Shown here one piece after another: positions 4,004 to 12,721 of a DNA stretch of 64,000 nt (positions are counted from its first letter, which is position 1; the number at the start of each line of letters is the position of its first letter). The notes beneath the pieces are model-generated. The model had not been told where the DNA came from. It saw only the letters and a program-made list of their open reading frames with translations, and did not search any database. A program made the translations under genes and the position numbers. The stretch is from Shigella phage Henu12. Location: the sequence record OQ834936; one strand, given 5' to 3'.

Positions 4004-4332
4004 ACCTTATCTCCTATAGTTCTGAATAGGACAAAACTTCTGTCATGAACAATACTCGAAGATACTGCAAAACTATTCTCAAGTATCTTTTTGTTTGGAT
4101 TGTAAAATTCTTCTTGAAACAAATCAAGAGCTTCTTGATGGTTCTGTGGAAGACCTTTGATATAGACCTTCAAAGTAACCGTTGTATAAATCTCAGAAGC
4201 TAACTCTGATTGTGCTGCTTGAAACAGTTCATTGATAAACTTATGACCATCTTCAGGACGCTTAATGTTTTCCCAACGTTCTTCAATGATTAAATTAACA
4301 TTCATCTGTTTAATTTTCATAGTAATCTCCAC
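3985..4332 (-). CDS. hypothetical protein
   Basis: 115 aa ORF, co-oriented, preceded by a terminator and followed by an overlapping small ORF. Confidence 0.45.
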   Translation of the reverse strand: MEITMKIKQMNVNLIIEERWENIKRPEDGHKFINELFQAAQSELASEIYTTVTLKVYIKGLPQNHQEALDLFQEEFYNPNKKILENSFAVSSSIVHDRSFVLFRTIGDKVCKVIG

Positions 4333-4333
4333 A

Positions 4334-4358
4334 AATTAAAAAGGCTCCCGTAGGAGCC
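4334..4358 (-). terminator. intrinsic terminator (GGCUCC-UACG-GGAGCC plus U-tract)
   Basis: 6-bp GC inverted repeat at 4343-4358 with tetraloop and T-run on the minus strand, directly 3' of the Nampt-family gene. Confidence 0.6.
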
Positions 4359-4373
4359 TCTTATCATACTGTT

Positions 4374-6200
4374 TTAAAGTTGCTTGTCAATAGTATTTCG
4401 AACATCACGCAGGTTAACGTAACCATAAGGTTGCGAGTTACTAAATACCAGTTTCAAAGCACTATGACAGTTGTCAATTGCACCTTCAAACTCTGCAAAG
4501 CCAAAACCATCTACAGCTACCAGCTTGTCACCATCCCACATAGGGACAACTCCACCAAAAGCAGACTTCTTAAGACCGCTGTCAGTTTTAGGGTCTTTAG
4601 CCAGCATAATTTCTTGACCATCCATCTGTGCAAGAGTTGCTTTAACAGCAAATGCAAAGGTGTCACGAGTCAGGTACTGATAGGTGTATGAGCCTACACC
4701 AAACACTACGTTAGAACTTGCAAAACCTTTATCAGCAAGACGTGACAGAATCTCATTAGCCCTTTCCAGAGTGATAGAATCACCGTAGATTAGCCCAATG
4801 TGCTCATCCAGTACTTTGTACCCTTTGGAGTTAACAGTGCCACCAAAGATGTTATACAGCGTGTGTATAGCTCCATCAATTTCTGCTGTTAACATACGCT
4901 TCACAGTAAACTGTCCAGTTTTCTGAGCGGTAATCAGGTTGATTGTGTCAATATAATCAAAATCTTCATTTTCAACAACCATCTCATAACCTTCAGAGAT
5001 TAACCAAGCAGAGAACCCAAAACCAATATCAGACATTTCACAATTCAAGATTGTGTCATGCAGATGGGTATTATCTGGTGCAAGACCTTTCATGTGCTTG
5101 TAGAACATTGACTTAGCAGTTTCCCATTCAACGGCTTTGTAACCTGTAACAATGTGAACAGGGTCTCCAGAGTCTGGACGAATTACCAACTTACCATCAC
5201 GATTCAGAATTACATTACGTAGCTCTGGCAGAATCTGTGTAACAGTACGCCAGAAGTTGTAAGTATCTGATACGGCACTTGCAATACCAGTTGGGTAAAC
5301 TTCTGTCAGAAGGCGATGGAAAGTTTCTACCTCACCACGCCAACGTTTGGCATCTAGTAATCCTTCAGACTGCATAATGTACTGTGAGTGAATATCCTCT
5401 TCTGTCAGGTCTTTCATATTCCATGAAATGTTTGCACACATCACAGAGTGTTCAGTTGCTGGTACAGAGTTGCCAATATCACTGATTGTCATAAACTGAC
5501 CATAAGCACGTTTAGCAGTATACACAGCAGGGAAGCTGTCAGTACCTTTAAAGCTGGTCAAGTGACCTACAGCATTAAAAGCATCATCTGTGAAGCCAGA
5601 CATACCACGCATTGCAAAATCATGACACTGCCAAGGTAAATGGAAGTCATTGTCACAGGTCTTGTCAGCCCATTGTTTACAGATACGTTTGTAATGCAGT
5701 GCAATAGTTGCAATCGTACAAGCCTTCCAGATTTCAGCAGAGAAAGCATCTTCAAGGTAACCAGCTACCCAATGGAATCCCTCTACAGTGTTTTTAAAGA
5801 CAATCATCGGGACACGCATAGGGACAATTGTACCTTCCTCTACAGAGTAGACTTCAACAGGTAGGTAACCCAAGTCATGAAGTTCTTCCCAATGTTGACG
5901 ACCAATAGCATCTGCACCAAGGACACCATTCATGATTTCCAAGATTTCGTCAATGGCTTCTTTCTTATCACGTTCAAAGAACGTTGCATTCCAGTGGTCT
6001 ACCAGATAGTCTTTTACAAAACGCTGAATACCAAAGGCTACAACACCATCAATCTCTAACGGAGAGTTAAACCATTTATCTCCACGAGGTGTTAAGTTCA
6101 GCATAAGATACTGTGTAGCATCTGGATACTGGTAGAAATGGCCAGATTTGTAGGCATCTGCATTAAGTGCTGCTGGTACTGCATAAAGTGATTTAGTCAT
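4374..6200 (-). CDS. nicotinamide phosphoribosyltransferase family protein (Nampt/NadV-like; could be a Namat-type NAD+-forming transferase)
   Basis: 608 aa; N-terminus ALNADAYKSGHFYQYP resembles the Nampt start (LLATDSYKVTHYKQYP); GVGSYTYQY-type motifs; about 100 aa longer than canonical Nampt. Confidence 0.8.
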   Translation of the reverse strand: MTKSLYAVPAALNADAYKSGHFYQYPDATQYLMLNLTPRGDKWFNSPLEIDGVVAFGIQRFVKDYLVDHWNATFFERDKKEAIDEILEIMNGVLGADAIGRQHWEELHDLGYLPVEVYSVEEGTIVPMRVPMIVFKNTVEGFHWVAGYLEDAFSAEIWKACTIATIALHYKRICKQWADKTCDNDFHLPWQCHDFAMRGMSGFTDDAFNAVGHLTSFKGTDSFPAVYTAKRAYGQFMTISDIGNSVPATEHSVMCANISWNMKDLTEEDIHSQYIMQSEGLLDAKRWRGEVETFHRLLTEVYPTGIASAVSDTYNFWRTVTQILPELRNVILNRDGKLVIRPDSGDPVHIVTGYKAVEWETAKSMFYKHMKGLAPDNTHLHDTILNCEMSDIGFGFSAWLISEGYEMVVENEDFDYIDTINLITAQKTGQFTVKRMLTAEIDGAIHTLYNIFGGTVNSKGYKVLDEHIGLIYGDSITLERANEILSRLADKGFASSNVVFGVGSYTYQYLTRDTFAFAVKATLAQMDGQEIMLAKDPKTDSGLKKSAFGGVVPMWDGDKLVAVDGFGFAEFEGAIDNCHSALKLVFSNSQPYGYVNLRDVRNTIDKQL

Positions 6201-6210
6201 CTTTTTATCT

Positions 6211-6226
6211 CTCTCAAAGTGGGGCT
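6211..6226 (-). other. GC stem-loop GGGGCU-GAAA-AGCCCC (minus sense), no U-tract
   Basis: Identical to the 1359-1374 hairpin; lies between the Prs-family stop and the Nampt-family RBS. Confidence 0.5.
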
Positions 6227-6244
6227 TTTCAGCCCCTAAAGTTG

Positions 6245-7144
6245 TTATTCAATATTTGCTACGGTCACTTGTGAGAAGTGGGAAAGACCACGGTCTTTTT
6301 CATCCCCTAGTGAGTTTGTAGTGTAGATATGGTCGATACCATTGTCAAGGAGATTTTCAACACCTTTAGAGAAAATCCCATGAGTGACATACAGTTCCAC
6401 ACGTTCTGCTCCAGCTTCACGAAGATACTTTGCAGCCTCGATAAAGGTTCGACCACCGTCACAGATATCATCCAGAATCATGACAGTCTTACCTGTCAAG
6501 TCTACATCATCAAGGATTCGCATACCAGTGATTTCACCAGTTTTCAGGTTTCGTACCTTAGCCATTGTAATATAAGGTTTATCAACCTCTTTAGCAGCCT
6601 CTTCAGTCTTCTTAGCTGCACCTGCATCTGGAGCCACTAAGTAATCAATGCGTGGGTCACTTGCAAAGTGGACTGCTGCCTCTTTTTGAGGGAGGTTGTA
6701 GAAGCTCTTAAACAAATTCTCTGCAACATTACTGTGAGTATCCAGAGCACATACTGCATCGAACTCCATAGCATTTACAAGATTTGCAAAGACTTTAAGT
6801 GCTGCTGCATCACCTTTAAACATGTGACGGTCATAGCGAGCATTTGGTAAGAATCCAAAGACAACAGTTTTCAGAGTTGCTTTCTGAGGAATCAAACGGT
6901 CAATTGCTTCTTTAGCCATAGCTAATGCAAAGAGTGTGTCTTTGTCATAACCTTGTACTGTGAAGACTACGTTTTCAATCTTACCAGCAGCATGTTCAGC
7001 AAAGTCTACTAAGTCTTCTGAGAAGTTACCACCAATCTCCCCAGAAGGGAACTGGATAATGTTGAAGGTCTCTTGATGAGAACCTTTGGAATTTGAATTA
7101 AGTAGAACTCGAATAGTAGTTTTCATAATATTTCTCTCAGTCAA
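6245..7144 (-). CDS. ribose-phosphate pyrophosphokinase family protein (Prs-like; could be an ADP-ribose pyrophosphokinase)
   Basis: 299 aa; Prs-like motifs FPSGEIGGNF (cf. RFSDGE), FGFLPNARYDR (cf. GYARQDRR) and the PRPP-binding loop MILDDICDGGRT. Confidence 0.8.
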   Translation of the reverse strand: MTERNIMKTTIRVLLNSNSKGSHQETFNIIQFPSGEIGGNFSEDLVDFAEHAAGKIENVVFTVQGYDKDTLFALAMAKEAIDRLIPQKATLKTVVFGFLPNARYDRHMFKGDAAALKVFANLVNAMEFDAVCALDTHSNVAENLFKSFYNLPQKEAAVHFASDPRIDYLVAPDAGAAKKTEEAAKEVDKPYITMAKVRNLKTGEITGMRILDDVDLTGKTVMILDDICDGGRTFIEAAKYLREAGAERVELYVTHGIFSKGVENLLDNGIDHIYTTNSLGDEKDRGLSHFSQVTVANIE

Positions 7145-7442
7145 AAGTTACAAATGTTACAGCCATAGCTGATTTACATTTCTTTGGGTCTACAATGTGG
7201 TAGATAACTGAACAGTTTCCTGTTCCGTCTGGTACTGGTTTTGTCCAAGTACGTTCAATATTTGGCTCTCCAAACTCTTTATAGAATCCGTTGGAATAGT
7301 GGTTTACCATCTCAATAGCAAGTGCATCTGGAACGTGACCACGTATCATATACATCTCACAACCATTTCCACCATCACTCACTAGTGGTATAATATCCCA
7401 TTGTTCTCTAGCCATGATAAGTTGCCTCATAAACTGTCTCAA
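7137..7442 (-). CDS. hypothetical protein
   Basis: 101 aa ORF, co-oriented, overlaps neighbours by a few nt. Confidence 0.4.
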   Translation of the reverse strand: MRQFMRQLIMAREQWDIIPLVSDGGNGCEMYMIRGHVPDALAIEMVNHYSNGFYKEFGEPNIERTWTKPVPDGTGNCSVIYHIVDPKKCKSAMAVTFVTFD

Positions 7443-7923
7443 GCTTCAACAAGAGAGATATTGCCAGAAATGCGTATTCCCTGTCAAGCATTGGTGGCAT
7501 ATTATTTATAAGATATGCTTCCTGTTCTTCCCAAGTCATCTTAGGAGCTTCTGGAAGCTTCTCTCCCTGCTTCTGGTTATCTTCTTGAGTCTGGATAAAC
7601 CAGTTCGAGCAATGGTGCTCTCCACCTTTTGTCACGGGCTTATGGTGGCCTAATGTGAAAGCTTTCTTTCCAGAATATCTACAAAGCTTATTAAGAGTTG
7701 CAATAGTGTTCTTGACAACACAGTATTCATAGAGGTTGTCAATAGTATAGTGAGGGTAGTACTGGAACAAGGCACTATCACGAAACTTACCACGGTTCCA
7801 AAGTACCATGTGGTTAGAATTTGAAGGGTCATACTGATGTGAATCGATGAACTCTTGACGCTCATCAAAATCAAGACGAAGAACAGACATTGCAGCAGCA
7901 CGTTTCAGATTTGAATGGTACAT
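7408..7923 (-). CDS. hypothetical protein
   Basis: 171 aa ORF; no motif recognised. Confidence 0.45.
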   Translation of the reverse strand: MYHSNLKRAAAMSVLRLDFDERQEFIDSHQYDPSNSNHMVLWNRGKFRDSALFQYYPHYTIDNLYEYCVVKNTIATLNKLCRYSGKKAFTLGHHKPVTKGGEHHCSNWFIQTQEDNQKQGEKLPEAPKMTWEEQEAYLINNMPPMLDREYAFLAISLLLKLETVYEATYHG

Positions 7924-7931
7924 GATTTCTC

Positions 7932-7962
7932 CAAAATAAAAAGGGAACCTTTTACAGTTCCC
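7932..7962 (-). terminator. intrinsic terminator (GGGAAC hairpin plus U-tract)
   Basis: Inverted repeat GGGAAC/GTTCCC at 7943-7962 with T-rich run on the minus strand. Confidence 0.5.
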
Positions 7963-7975
7963 TAATCATATACGT

Positions 7976-8287
7976 TTACTGAGCTATTTTCAAGACTTTT
8001 AAGAAACCTTCCTCACCAATTGCATCATAAACGTTTTCAGTTGGCTTGATAAGGTTATTCAAGCATACAATTTTCTTACGCTTCTTGTCATAAGTAAGCT
8101 TCAGTTGTTTCAACTCTTTGTCATCTTCAGGGTGCTCATTGTACATCTTCACAGCTTCTTTAAAGCTAATGTAGCCACCACCTAGAGTAAGGAAACCTGT
8201 ACCACAATAGTGGGAGTTGTGTTTATCAGCCATAAACTGGCACAGGATAGAAATCTGAATTTTACGAGTGTTATAAACCTTTTCCAT
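7976..8287 (-). CDS. hypothetical protein
   Basis: 103 aa ORF. Confidence 0.45.
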   Translation of the reverse strand: MEKVYNTRKIQISILCQFMADKHNSHYCGTGFLTLGGGYISFKEAVKMYNEHPEDDKELKQLKLTYDKKRKKIVCLNNLIKPTENVYDAIGEEGFLKVLKIAQ

Positions 8288-8298
8288 TTTAATAATCC

Positions 8299-8556
8299 TT
8301 ACTTGCTACGTTTACGGTTGCGAGCTTTTTTAGCTGCACGTTTAATTGCTGCTGCACCAGTTTGGCGATGAGCTTGCTTCTTACCACCTTTACCACGTCC
8401 AACATGGATGTAAGGTTGCTGTTCAATCTGGCTTGCAAGAACCTGTGCAACTGCTGAAGCGTCTACTCCAACCTGCTTACCAGTCATTGAAACGATAGCT
8501 GCTGCTTTTGCCAGAGCTGCTAAGAAACCTGCTTTCATGTTTGAAAAAATTCCCAT
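8299..8556 (-). CDS. hypothetical small protein with Ala-rich N-terminus and highly basic C-terminus
   Basis: 85 aa; C-terminal KRAAKKARNRKRSK. Confidence 0.4.
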   Translation of the reverse strand: MGIFSNMKAGFLAALAKAAAIVSMTGKQVGVDASAVAQVLASQIEQQPYIHVGRGKGGKKQAHRQTGAAAIKRAAKKARNRKRSK

Positions 8557-8571
8557 TTTAATATCTCTCTG

Positions 8572-8892
8572 TTAAAGTTTAATACAGAACTGCTTCAGTT
8601 CTTCTTCTGTTACTGCGACAACTTTATCATCAACTCTCAAGTTTGTCGCGTAAAAGTTTGAGAAATGTGCTTTGTATTTTACTTTAAATACTCCGGCGTC
8701 CTCAATCTGCTTCAAGGCTGTCATTCCAGTGGAATCAAATAGGCTTTTTGTGTAGTTTCTCCACTCTTCAAGAGTTTCTGGATTGACTTTATAGCTACCA
8801 AACAGTGACATGTTACAAGCTACCATAACAATCTCACCACGTTTGAATCCACCATTACTCTGTACGCCATTGACAGTCGCCTTGCCAGCCAT
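8572..8892 (-). CDS. hypothetical protein
   Basis: Start chosen at the internal ATG (8892) that has a GGAG RBS; the longer ORF-track version would overlap nrdG by about 120 nt. Confidence 0.4.
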   Translation of the reverse strand: MAGKATVNGVQSNGGFKRGEIVMVACNMSLFGSYKVNPETLEEWRNYTKSLFDSTGMTALKQIEDAGVFKVKYKAHFSNFYATNLRVDDKVVAVTEEELKQFCIKL

Positions 8893-12484: not shown

Positions 12485-12508
12485 GCAAAAAAGGTCTCCG
12501 AAGAGACC
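12485..12508 (-). terminator. intrinsic terminator (GGUCUC-UUCG-GAGACC plus U-tract)
   Basis: 6-bp inverted repeat at 12493-12508 with tetraloop and T-run on the minus strand, upstream of the nrdD RBS. Confidence 0.6.
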
Positions 12509-12520
12509 CTTATATTAATT

Positions 12521-12721
12521 CTACTTAGAAAACTTTTCAATAAGCTTTTTAAGCTTTCCGCTCAAATCATGTTTGATATCTAATATCTCAAAGATAACCC
12601 ATACTAACATAGCTCCAAACAGAGCACCTTGTTTTAAATCAGTAAATAGGCTAGTAACCATGAATGCCAGAGCAATCATCGGAGCATCTTCAACAAAACC
12701 ATCCCATAAACGTTTAAGCAT
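12521..12721 (-). CDS. hypothetical small hydrophobic protein
   Basis: 66 aa with hydrophobic core. Confidence 0.35.
   Translation of the reverse strand: MLKRLWDGFVEDAPMIALAFMVTSLFTDLKQGALFGAMLVWVIFEILDIKHDLSGKLKKLIEKFSK

Follow-up and report, generated by a model that had tools for sequence, protein, structure and literature searches.

Dispensable small genes beside the NAD+ reconstitution module of Shigella phage Henu12, with a likely anti-retron role for one of them

Introduction

What can be concluded about small phage genes from their position beside a counter-defence module? The question is raised by a 64,000-nucleotide stretch of Shigella phage Henu12 (sequence record OQ834936; hereafter the window), in which four short open reading frames (ORFs), named here D, C, B, and A in minus-strand order, lie between nrdG and two genes that encode Prs-like and NAMPT-like proteins. 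The orthologues of these two genes in Escherichia phage JohannRWettstein (Bas63), genes 79 and 80, are Adps and Namat, the enzymes of NAD+ reconstitution pathway 1 (NARP1) (Osterman et al.). A first-pass annotation of the window reported four small genes without recognisable motifs, bounded by a terminator, and took their position beside the NAD+ module as a reason to regard them as candidates for accessory or anti-defence functions. Its observations are largely right and its interpretation is half right. The explanation that best fits the evidence assembled below, with a probability of approximately 0.7, is that D, C, B, and A are dispensable accessory genes in two transcription units, that B is a divergent HNH-fold protein with a likely role against retron Eco2, and that none of the four is needed for NARP1.

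Four real and dispensable genes

D, C, B, and A are real, dispensable accessory genes, and none of them has a core function. The four ORFs of 85–171 amino acids (aa) that the first-pass annotation listed are present on the minus strand, and all have full-length PHROG family matches (E from 1e-48 to 1e-93). Ratios of nonsynonymous to synonymous substitution rates (dN/dS), determined against Moogle, Bas63, and the metagenomic relative L004, range overall from 0.07 to 0.37; because such values indicate purifying selection, A–D are genes and not chance ORFs. By gene, dN/dS is 0.07–0.08 for B, 0–0.24 for D (0–0.09 against Moogle and Bas63 alone), 0.15–0.25 for A, and 0.19–0.37 for C, which is the fastest-evolving of the four; the comparison genes Adps and nrdG have values of 0.12 and 0.05–0.16, respectively. 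The four genes occur in 230–263 records of Felix/Moogle-type phages, compared with approximately 252 records with a close Adps. D was detected in 141 records, with its basic tail left unaligned. The longest reading of A has 101 aa and begins at a TTG codon (7137–7442); every homologue instead starts at the ATG at 7415, which gives 92 aa, overlaps the B stop by 8 nucleotides (nt), and is most likely the start of A.

Bas63 genes 75–78 are syntenic orthologues of the four, with amino acid identities of 92% (D), 52% (C), 77% (B), and 72% (A), the same gene order and overlaps, and the same promoter-hairpin between C and B. Bas63 nevertheless belongs to another genus than the Mooglevirus-like window phage, and the phenotype of its gene 77 (g77) is known from Bas63 alone. 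Barcoded knock-outs of Bas63 have been studied by PhageMaP (Chen et al., bioRxiv 10.1101/2024.10.10.617714), and gene numbers in that work equal the GenBank locus tags (73, nrdG; 75, D; 76, C; 77, B; 78, A; 79, Adps; 80, Namat). Knock-outs of all four orthologues are viable, genes 75, 77, and 78 have positive knock-out fitness on laboratory hosts, and the 46–66 kb segment of Bas63 was called uniformly non-essential (bioRxiv 10.1101/2024.10.10.617714). The first-pass annotation had named homologues with core functions, or conservation without variability among relatives, as grounds for abandoning an accessory role. Neither was found: D and C have mosaic alleles, and A, C, NARP1, and ORF E, a fifth small ORF between D and nrdG that the annotation left out, have all been lost naturally in some relatives.

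Annotation of these genes is inconsistent across several hundred Felix O1-like genomes, in which they are labelled hypothetical, HNH endonuclease (on the wrong gene), GIY-YIG, or ribose-phosphate pyrophosphokinase. PhageMaP labels derived from BLASTp for Bas63 genes 74, 76, 77, and 78 (the orthologues of E, C, B, and A) receive no support from profile searches, including “HNH endonuclease” for g76 and “ribose-phosphate pyrophosphokinase” for g78. The labels on genes 74 and 76–78 probably stem from mis-annotated or merged ORFs in other records.

Promoter-hairpin cassettes and predicted transcription units

A terminator-like hairpin with an 8-bp stem and a T-run occurs on the minus strand at 7963–7942, between C and B, and is kept in 29 of 29 IMG/VR relatives and in an Erwinia phage. 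The first-pass annotation had placed a terminator at about 7932–7962 as a boundary of the gene group; the hairpin and T-run are indeed in the sequence, but they split the group into two pairs. In every aligned relative the end of C reads TTGAAA, 17 nt, TATGAT or TACTAT, 1 nt, hairpin, T-run, GGAG, and the B start codon. The Erwinia phage, a Kolesnikvirus, keeps the promoter (TTGCAA-17-TACTAT) and the hairpin although its upstream gene is unrelated. When the window was scanned for sigma70-like promoters directly followed by a terminator-like hairpin, three such cassettes were found on the minus strand, compared with a mean of 0.05 in 20 shuffles. They lie upstream of nrdD (12491–12540), of B (7942–7993), and of a 111-aa ORF that follows Namat (4340–4390). 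The cassettes continue into a ribosome binding site and start codon, and they coincide with borders of mosaic segments.

These cassettes, which are described here for the first time together with the transcription units that they would define, suggest that the four genes belong to two units divided between C and B. D and C would form the tail of an nrdD–nrdG unit, and B and A would open a unit that runs into Adps and Namat and is ended by the cassette at 4340–4390; the spacing between A and Adps is tight. Initiation at the predicted promoter would probably fall within the stem, which lies only 1 nt past the -10 hexamer, so that the resulting transcripts would not be stopped by the terminator.

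The layout recalls the PeSL motifs of T4-like phages (Arbiol et al. 2010, PMC2839356; Comeau et al. 2014, PMC4122927), in which a short intergenic early sigma70-type promoter is combined with a stem-loop and repeated in the genome. The window cassettes likewise combine a predicted promoter with a stem-loop, are repeated, and border shuffled gene modules with indels and allele swaps. PeSLs have been described in T4-like phages and not in Ounavirinae, however; the likeness drawn here is one of layout, and the window hairpin differs in beginning 1 nt after the -10 hexamer.

ORF B: a probable HNH-type fold and retron Eco2

The first-pass statement that the four genes have no recognisable motifs fails for two of them: B has an HNH-type motif, and C scores above the Pfam gathering threshold for DUF7390. 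PHROG HNH families match residues 59–123 of B at 2.6e-5 and 6e-4, and the HNH region of the IscB model is matched weakly (3e-3), which is the only NCBIfam match; PADLOC models gave none. A search of 1.84 billion representatives with the B family profile returned 18 clusters only, all of them phage-type proteins of 160–190 aa except for one 363-aa protein (E 1.3e-6), which exceeds the Pfam thresholds for HNH_5 (8e-13) and HNH (9e-12) in precisely the region aligned with B. In an hhalign comparison (E 9e-4), FTLGHHKPVTKGGEHHCSNWFIQTQEDNQ of B falls on VTIEHIKPVSKGGKTRINNIALATWENNH, the EH..GG..N..NN motif of the HNH protein. Across 13 members of the B family, down to 24% identity, H93, G100, G101, and N107 are invariant, P96, H103, W108, Q111, and N116 are near-invariant, and H93, N107, and N116 have the spacing of an H-N-H/N motif. 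AF2 predicts beta strands at 89–93 and 108–112 and a helix at 113–119, and approximately 17 of 30 Foldseek matches in the PDB are HNH nucleases, none of them individually significant.

B resembles HNH or beta-beta-alpha-metal nucleases (Pfam clan His-Me finger; Gme HNH nickase 4H9D, Cas9, and the IscB HNH domain) in having H...GG...N...N in the expected spacing and a profile link to proteins that pass Pfam HNH, and, tentatively, in a predicted beta-hairpin followed by a helix. It differs from them in having no CxxC zinc-binding pairs, in the use of Asn as last metal ligand (the HNN variant), and in conserved N-terminal (approximately 80 aa) and C-terminal helical extensions that have no known relatives. 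We infer from sequence and predicted structure that B has a divergent nuclease fold of the HNH (“HNN”) type that lacks zinc-binding cysteines, and it may have nuclease activity. This assignment is new and replaces the label “GIY-YIG catalytic domain protein” that PhageMaP took from BLASTp for g77. No GIY-YIG match was found at E <= 10 in window B or Bas63_0077, nor any GIY-YIG signal among eight B family members, ten distant members, or the PHROG matches. Staphylococcal protein A was matched by the N-terminal part of B in a profile search (2e-5); this value sums five repeats, each with E of 10–50, and the match is due to chance.

The phenotype of g77 connects this protein with a defence system. 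On a strain with retron Ec67, g77 knock-outs have fitness values of -0.29, -0.63, and -0.51, where those of g75 and g78 are about +1, and g77 itself is at about +1 on other hosts (bioRxiv 10.1101/2024.10.10.617714). A clean g77 deletion causes a 10-fold loss of plating efficiency on Ec67 that can be complemented (bioRxiv 10.1101/2024.10.10.617714). Ec67 is the same retron as Eco2, and most Felixounavirus species withstand Eco2. B is orthologous to Bas63_0077: the two proteins are 77% identical over 171/171 aa, fall in one PHROG, and have the same neighbours. By this orthology the most likely role of B is to shield the phage from Eco2, probably through nucleic-acid cleaving or binding that requires H93, N107, and N116. 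The first-pass view of the four as accessory or anti-defence candidates thus stands for their dispensability and for B; A, C, and D have no anti-defence evidence.

How B would protect the phage is less straightforward. The PhageMaP authors propose that g77 cuts the multicopy single-stranded DNA (msDNA) of the retron (bioRxiv 10.1101/2024.10.10.617714). Two later studies found that Eco2 msDNA cages a TOPRIM nuclease and that msDNA decay, begun by phage DenB, turns on tRNA cutting. A nuclease that merely destroyed msDNA should therefore trigger Eco2 and not disarm it. This conflict between the proposed g77 mechanism and the known Eco2 mechanism is pointed out here for the first time, and it makes the mode of protection by B/g77 a specific and testable question. 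Among possible routes, B might bind the branched msDNA cage, or trim it, and thereby keep phage nucleases from opening it; alternatively, it might remove a trigger made by the phage.

Several points weigh against the overall interpretation. A simple mechanism in which a nuclease destroys retron DNA is doubtful for the reason just given. B matches no Pfam family at E <= 10 and does not reach the HNH gathering score, and only one of eight B homologues gives a Pfam HNH match, even then at 8.5e-3. The evidence on Ec67 is from Bas63 and from a preprint, and the effect there is a modest one of 10-fold. Eco2 restricts Stephanstirmvirinae and Vequintavirinae, and the presence of B homologues in restricted Stephanstirmvirinae may mean that the general role of the family is not anti-retron. 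The promoter and terminator between C and B are predictions from the sequence.

The alternative that best survives these points is that B is a general DNA-metabolism nuclease acting on branched DNA, in repair, or on host DNA, and that its retron phenotype is indirect, with more Eco2 activator made when B is missing. We consider this unlikely, and retain it because the Eco2-restricted Stephanstirmvirinae carry B homologues that are 42–46% identical. Fixed position and strong constraint (dN/dS 0.08) across Ounavirinae and Stephanstirmvirinae would suit such a nuclease, as would the location of the Phapecoctavirus B directly upstream of a UvrD-type helicase and near nrd genes, a weak endonuclease VII PHROG match (E 0.0096), the sensing by Eco2 of nuclease-driven decay of its own msDNA, and continued restriction by Eco2 of phages with distant B homologues. 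A general role is harder to reconcile with the fitness of Bas63 g77 knock-outs, which on four laboratory hosts equals that of knock-outs in other non-essential genes, with a sole reported g77 phenotype that is specific to one defence system, and with an HNH core that no DNA-repair domain accompanies. Protection from Eco2 remains the preferred role for B.

B was detected in 428 phage records, among them those of Kolesnikvirus, Yersinia phage P778, and Phapecoctavirus. In phAPEC8-like phages (L002 5047–6477, Phapecoctavirus Schickermooser), a LAGLIDADG/HTH-like 180-aa gene precedes the B homologue, nrdD/nrdG are several kb away, and the Prs-like gene is not its neighbour.

Relation to NARP1 and plasticity of the neighbourhood

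The first-pass annotation reasoned from position beside the NAD+ module to function. Fitness on a Sir2-HerA strain, natural losses, and domain searches all speak against a link to NARP1. On Sir2-HerA, Bas63 knock-outs of g79/g80 have fitness values of -2.1 to -3.3 (bioRxiv 10.1101/2024.10.10.617714), whereas those of g75 (+1.4 to +1.6), g76 (+1.25 to +1.28), g77 (+0.75 to +0.87), and g78 (+0.10 to +0.38) suffer no loss (bioRxiv 10.1101/2024.10.10.617714). In three metagenomic contigs (L004-6), the minus-strand segment that corresponds to window 4115–7326 (3.2 kb) is replaced by approximately 25 bp, with E, D, C, and B kept; the replacement creates an in-frame hybrid protein, P0036, that joins A residues 1–34 to the C-terminal 48 residues of the 111-aa ORF (L004 8001–8243). 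In another relative, L021 (5509–6134), the loss is confined to Adps and Namat; A and the 111-aa ORF on either side are both intact, and D, C, and B are kept. The converse is seen in an 87.6-kb genome (L034), in which NARP1 is kept without A; B runs straight into Adps there and has 177 aa, as the deletion of A took away the B stop codon. None of the four genes is needed for NARP1 to work, and a functional link is not supported.

Accessory genes are nevertheless known from NARP1 operons, which recruit a Macro-domain protein, Adpp (NARP1-AP), in 15% of cases and a RyR-domain protein, RyDEP, in a mycobacteriophage. These resemble the genes studied here in being small and in lying in or beside a phage Adps–Namat operon. 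It could be proposed that B and A, perhaps together with C and D, are likewise NAD+ reconstitution accessories that convert modified ADP-ribose species into Adps/Namat substrates, the more so as B and A share a predicted promoter/terminator-bounded unit with Adps and Namat, and as Kolesnikvirus and Yersinia phage P778 also have B, a small ORF, Adps, and Namat in this order. This proposal is very unlikely. The four have no sequence relationship to Adpp or RyDEP; no Macro or RyR (PF02026) Pfam match was found at E <= 1 in A, B, C, D, or E, and no NUDIX or other nucleotide-binding domain at that threshold in the four. Their Bas63 orthologues can be knocked out at no cost to fitness on Sir2-HerA, a background that does require NARP1. 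D, C, and B outlast NARP1 loss, as does A in L021, and L034 keeps NARP1 without A. The Phapecoctavirus B homologue adjoins a UvrD-type helicase and not NARP1, and the small Erwinia phage ORF at the A position is unrelated to A. As far as published phenotypes indicate, counter-defence by the B family is directed at a retron and not at NAD+ depletion.

The neighbourhood is a plastic accessory zone in which B and D are constant and C, A, E, and NARP1 can each be lost. Two tandem 149-aa paralogues (phrog_29478), neither of which has a Pfam match, lie between A and Adps in Mordin, Henu11, and KMM2 and are missing from the window. Their sites are L009 1764–2692 (Mordin_7/8) and L008 1765–2693 (Henu11 gp30/gp29), and the equivalent window position is 7127–7136. 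As truly variable genes inside the NARP1 unit, they are better anti-defence candidates by position than the four genes considered here. An HNH homing endonuclease occupies the gap between Adps and Namat in Moogle (gp6, L001 2846–3337) and in six of 29 IMG/VR loci, but not in the window. At this gap (approximately 6201–6244), the window has a short GC hairpin, GGGGCTGAAAAGCCCC (6221–6236, minus strand), without a T-run.

Labels of “HNH (homing) endonuclease” on relatives in GenBank point to B and/or C as selfish homing endonucleases or as remnants of such genes, and the HNH-like motif in B, the annotation of C as an HNH endonuclease in several records, and the true homing endonucleases nearby (in the Adps/Namat gap and, in Bas63, inside nrdD) might seem to agree, but the idea is scarcely credible given that B is single-copy, 171 aa long (177 aa in L034), and in the same position in all relatives examined, with neither the sporadic presence among close relatives expected of a homing endonuclease nor any NUMOD or other DNA-binding module, that C has no conserved histidine and matches only DUF7390, and that the real homing endonuclease is patchy in a way that B and C are not.

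ORFs C, D, A, and E

C matches Pfam DUF7390 (PF24116) with 60.9 bits against a gathering threshold of 28.4 (E 1.9e-16, profile positions 1–118), and PF24116 is found in all close C homologues; a literature search returned no paper that mentions DUF7390. The label “HNH endonuclease” that several GenBank records give to C was rejected, as an alignment of ten C homologues has no invariant or near-invariant His and C has no HNH family match. Three invariant C-terminal residues, L99, K100, and Q103, fall on the embedded -35 hexamer and stop region, and part of that conservation may therefore be regulatory. Alleles of C are mosaic: Moogle-type C (92–93% identical to the window) occurs in Felixounavirus backbones whose B is only 75–76% identical. 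In L025, an in-frame internal deletion leaves a 37-aa remnant of C. An obligate C–B pair was considered and discarded; the two genes are also adjacent in Yersinia phage P778, but C is absent upstream of B in Erwinia phage and Phapecoctavirus and is deleted in L025. A functional C–B fusion was likewise not accepted. The 259-aa protein P0014, from a 1355-bp ENA metagenomic contig, begins as a truncated C (DUF7390) and continues into full B by way of the translated terminator and ribosome binding site region; it was seen once and is a deletion variant.

D is the ORF for which the first-pass annotation correctly noted an Ala-rich N-terminus and a very basic C-terminus. Outside the Felix/Moogle group and the lineage of L004 it was not found; L004 and each of the 29 IMG/VR loci carry an intact copy. 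D has no PDB sequence relative at E <= 10. Its orthologue in Bas63 can be knocked out with full fitness (g75; bioRxiv 10.1101/2024.10.10.617714). The N-terminal half exists in two unrelated-looking forms, D1 (the window form) and D2 (10 of 29 IMG/VR loci), both of which are followed by a near-identical 33-residue tail, GRGKGGKKQAHRxxGAAAIKRAAKKARNRKRxK. This two-headed, one-tailed architecture is reported here for the first time. The constraint on the tail acts on the protein, because tail codons differ synonymously between alleles. D may be a small adaptor with a tail that binds nucleic acid or another conserved polyanionic target and a head that can be exchanged. The GRGKGGK that opens the tail is also the heptapeptide of the histone H4 N-terminal tail; the likeness is probably a coincidence between basic, glycine-rich nucleic-acid-binding tails.

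The A family is narrow, with 15 clusters that are all Felix-like. Pfam and PDB searches gave no interpretable family or structure match for A, which AF2 modelled poorly (pLDDT 58). Ribosomal protein S6 accounts for the best three sequence matches in the PDB, at E of approximately 0.9, and a bS6-like fold was rejected as unsupported; an hhalign comparison of A with an E. coli S6 sequence found nothing. A reading of A and the 111-aa gene that follows Namat as diverged paralogues on either side of NARP1 was also rejected. An initial hhalign E of 4.8e-6 came from an alignment that held P0036, the natural A/o115 hybrid, and after its removal E is 0.32 with a probability of 0.2%.

ORF E overlaps the 3' end of nrdG. 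Its versions among relatives have 83, 91, 106, 118, or 151 aa with differing C-terminal halves, and in several genomes it has <=47 aa.

Layout of the locus

The window represents a Mooglevirus-like, Felix O1-like phage, as judged from nucleotide comparison. The 2-kb stretch around the four ORFs is 94–95.5% identical to Mooglevirus phages, with matches that include Citrobacter phages BSwM KMM2, Moogle, and Mijalis and several Shigella Sf phages, and 60–80% identical to Felixounavirus phages. Minus-strand order is nrdD, 130-aa ORF, nrdG, E, D, C, hairpin, B, A, Prs-like gene, NAMPT-like gene, 111-aa ORF, 59-aa ORF, and rIIA. From nrdD to rIIA this is the same as Moogle gp15 down to gp1, with E–A equal to gp12–gp8. 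Coordinates are collected in Table 1.

Table 1. Features of the nrdG–Namat region of the window
Feature	Position	Strand	Remarks
ORF D	8299–8556	-	85 aa; Moogle gp11, Bas63_0075; phrog_4425, E 2e-48
Basic C-terminal tail of D, residues 53–85, GRGKGGKKQAHRQTGAAAIKRAAKKARNRKRSK	8302–8400	-	14 K/R, no D/E, pI 12
ORF C	7976–8287	-	103 aa; Moogle gp10, Bas63_0076; Pfam DUF7390 (PF24116)
Predicted sigma70-like promoter, TTGAAA-17-TATGAT	7965–7993	-	overlaps C end; hexamers conserved in relatives
Hairpin and T-run, intrinsic-terminator-like	7932–7963	-	begins 1 nt past -10 hexamer
ORF B	7408–7923	-	171 aa; Moogle gp9, Bas63_0077 / PhageMaP g77; phrog_3500, E 5e-93
HNH-like core of B, residues 85–120, FTLGHHKPVTKGGEHHCSNWFIQTQEDNQKQG	7564–7671	-	conserved residues, hhalign, AF2
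Candidate catalytic residues of B	H93 7645–7647; N107 7603–7605; N116 7576–7578	-	conservation and hhalign
ORF A	7137–7415	-	92 aa; Moogle gp8, Bas63_0078; start overlaps B stop (ATGGCTAG); phrog_4726, E 3e-59
ORF E	8572–8892	-	106 aa; Moogle gp12; between D and nrdG; phrog_5082, E 1.5e-44
Adps (Prs-like), first NARP1 enzyme	6245–7126	-	81% identical to Bas63_0079
Namat (NAMPT-like), second NARP1 enzyme	4374–6200	-	75% identical to Bas63_0080
Second composite predicted promoter (TTGACA-16-TATGAT), hairpin, and T-run	4340–4390	-	would close B–A–Adps–Namat unit

Conclusions

Small genes beside NARP1 in this Felix O1-like phage are best regarded as dispensable accessory genes, one of which would protect the phage from retron Eco2. 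A bolder version, tentative and on balance rather improbable, would have B found a narrow HNH-fold anti-retron family that blocks Eco2 other than by msDNA destruction, B–A–Adps–Namat form one early counter-defence operon with a promoter/terminator cassette at either end, and D, with its exchangeable heads, act as an arms-race protein against a conserved polyanionic host target. The locus illustrates a limit of guilt by association, namely that genes may be predicted to be co-transcribed with NARP1 without functional or evolutionary dependence on it. Felix O1-like phages serve phage therapy and biocontrol, and knowledge of which accessory gene counters which defence therefore has practical value.

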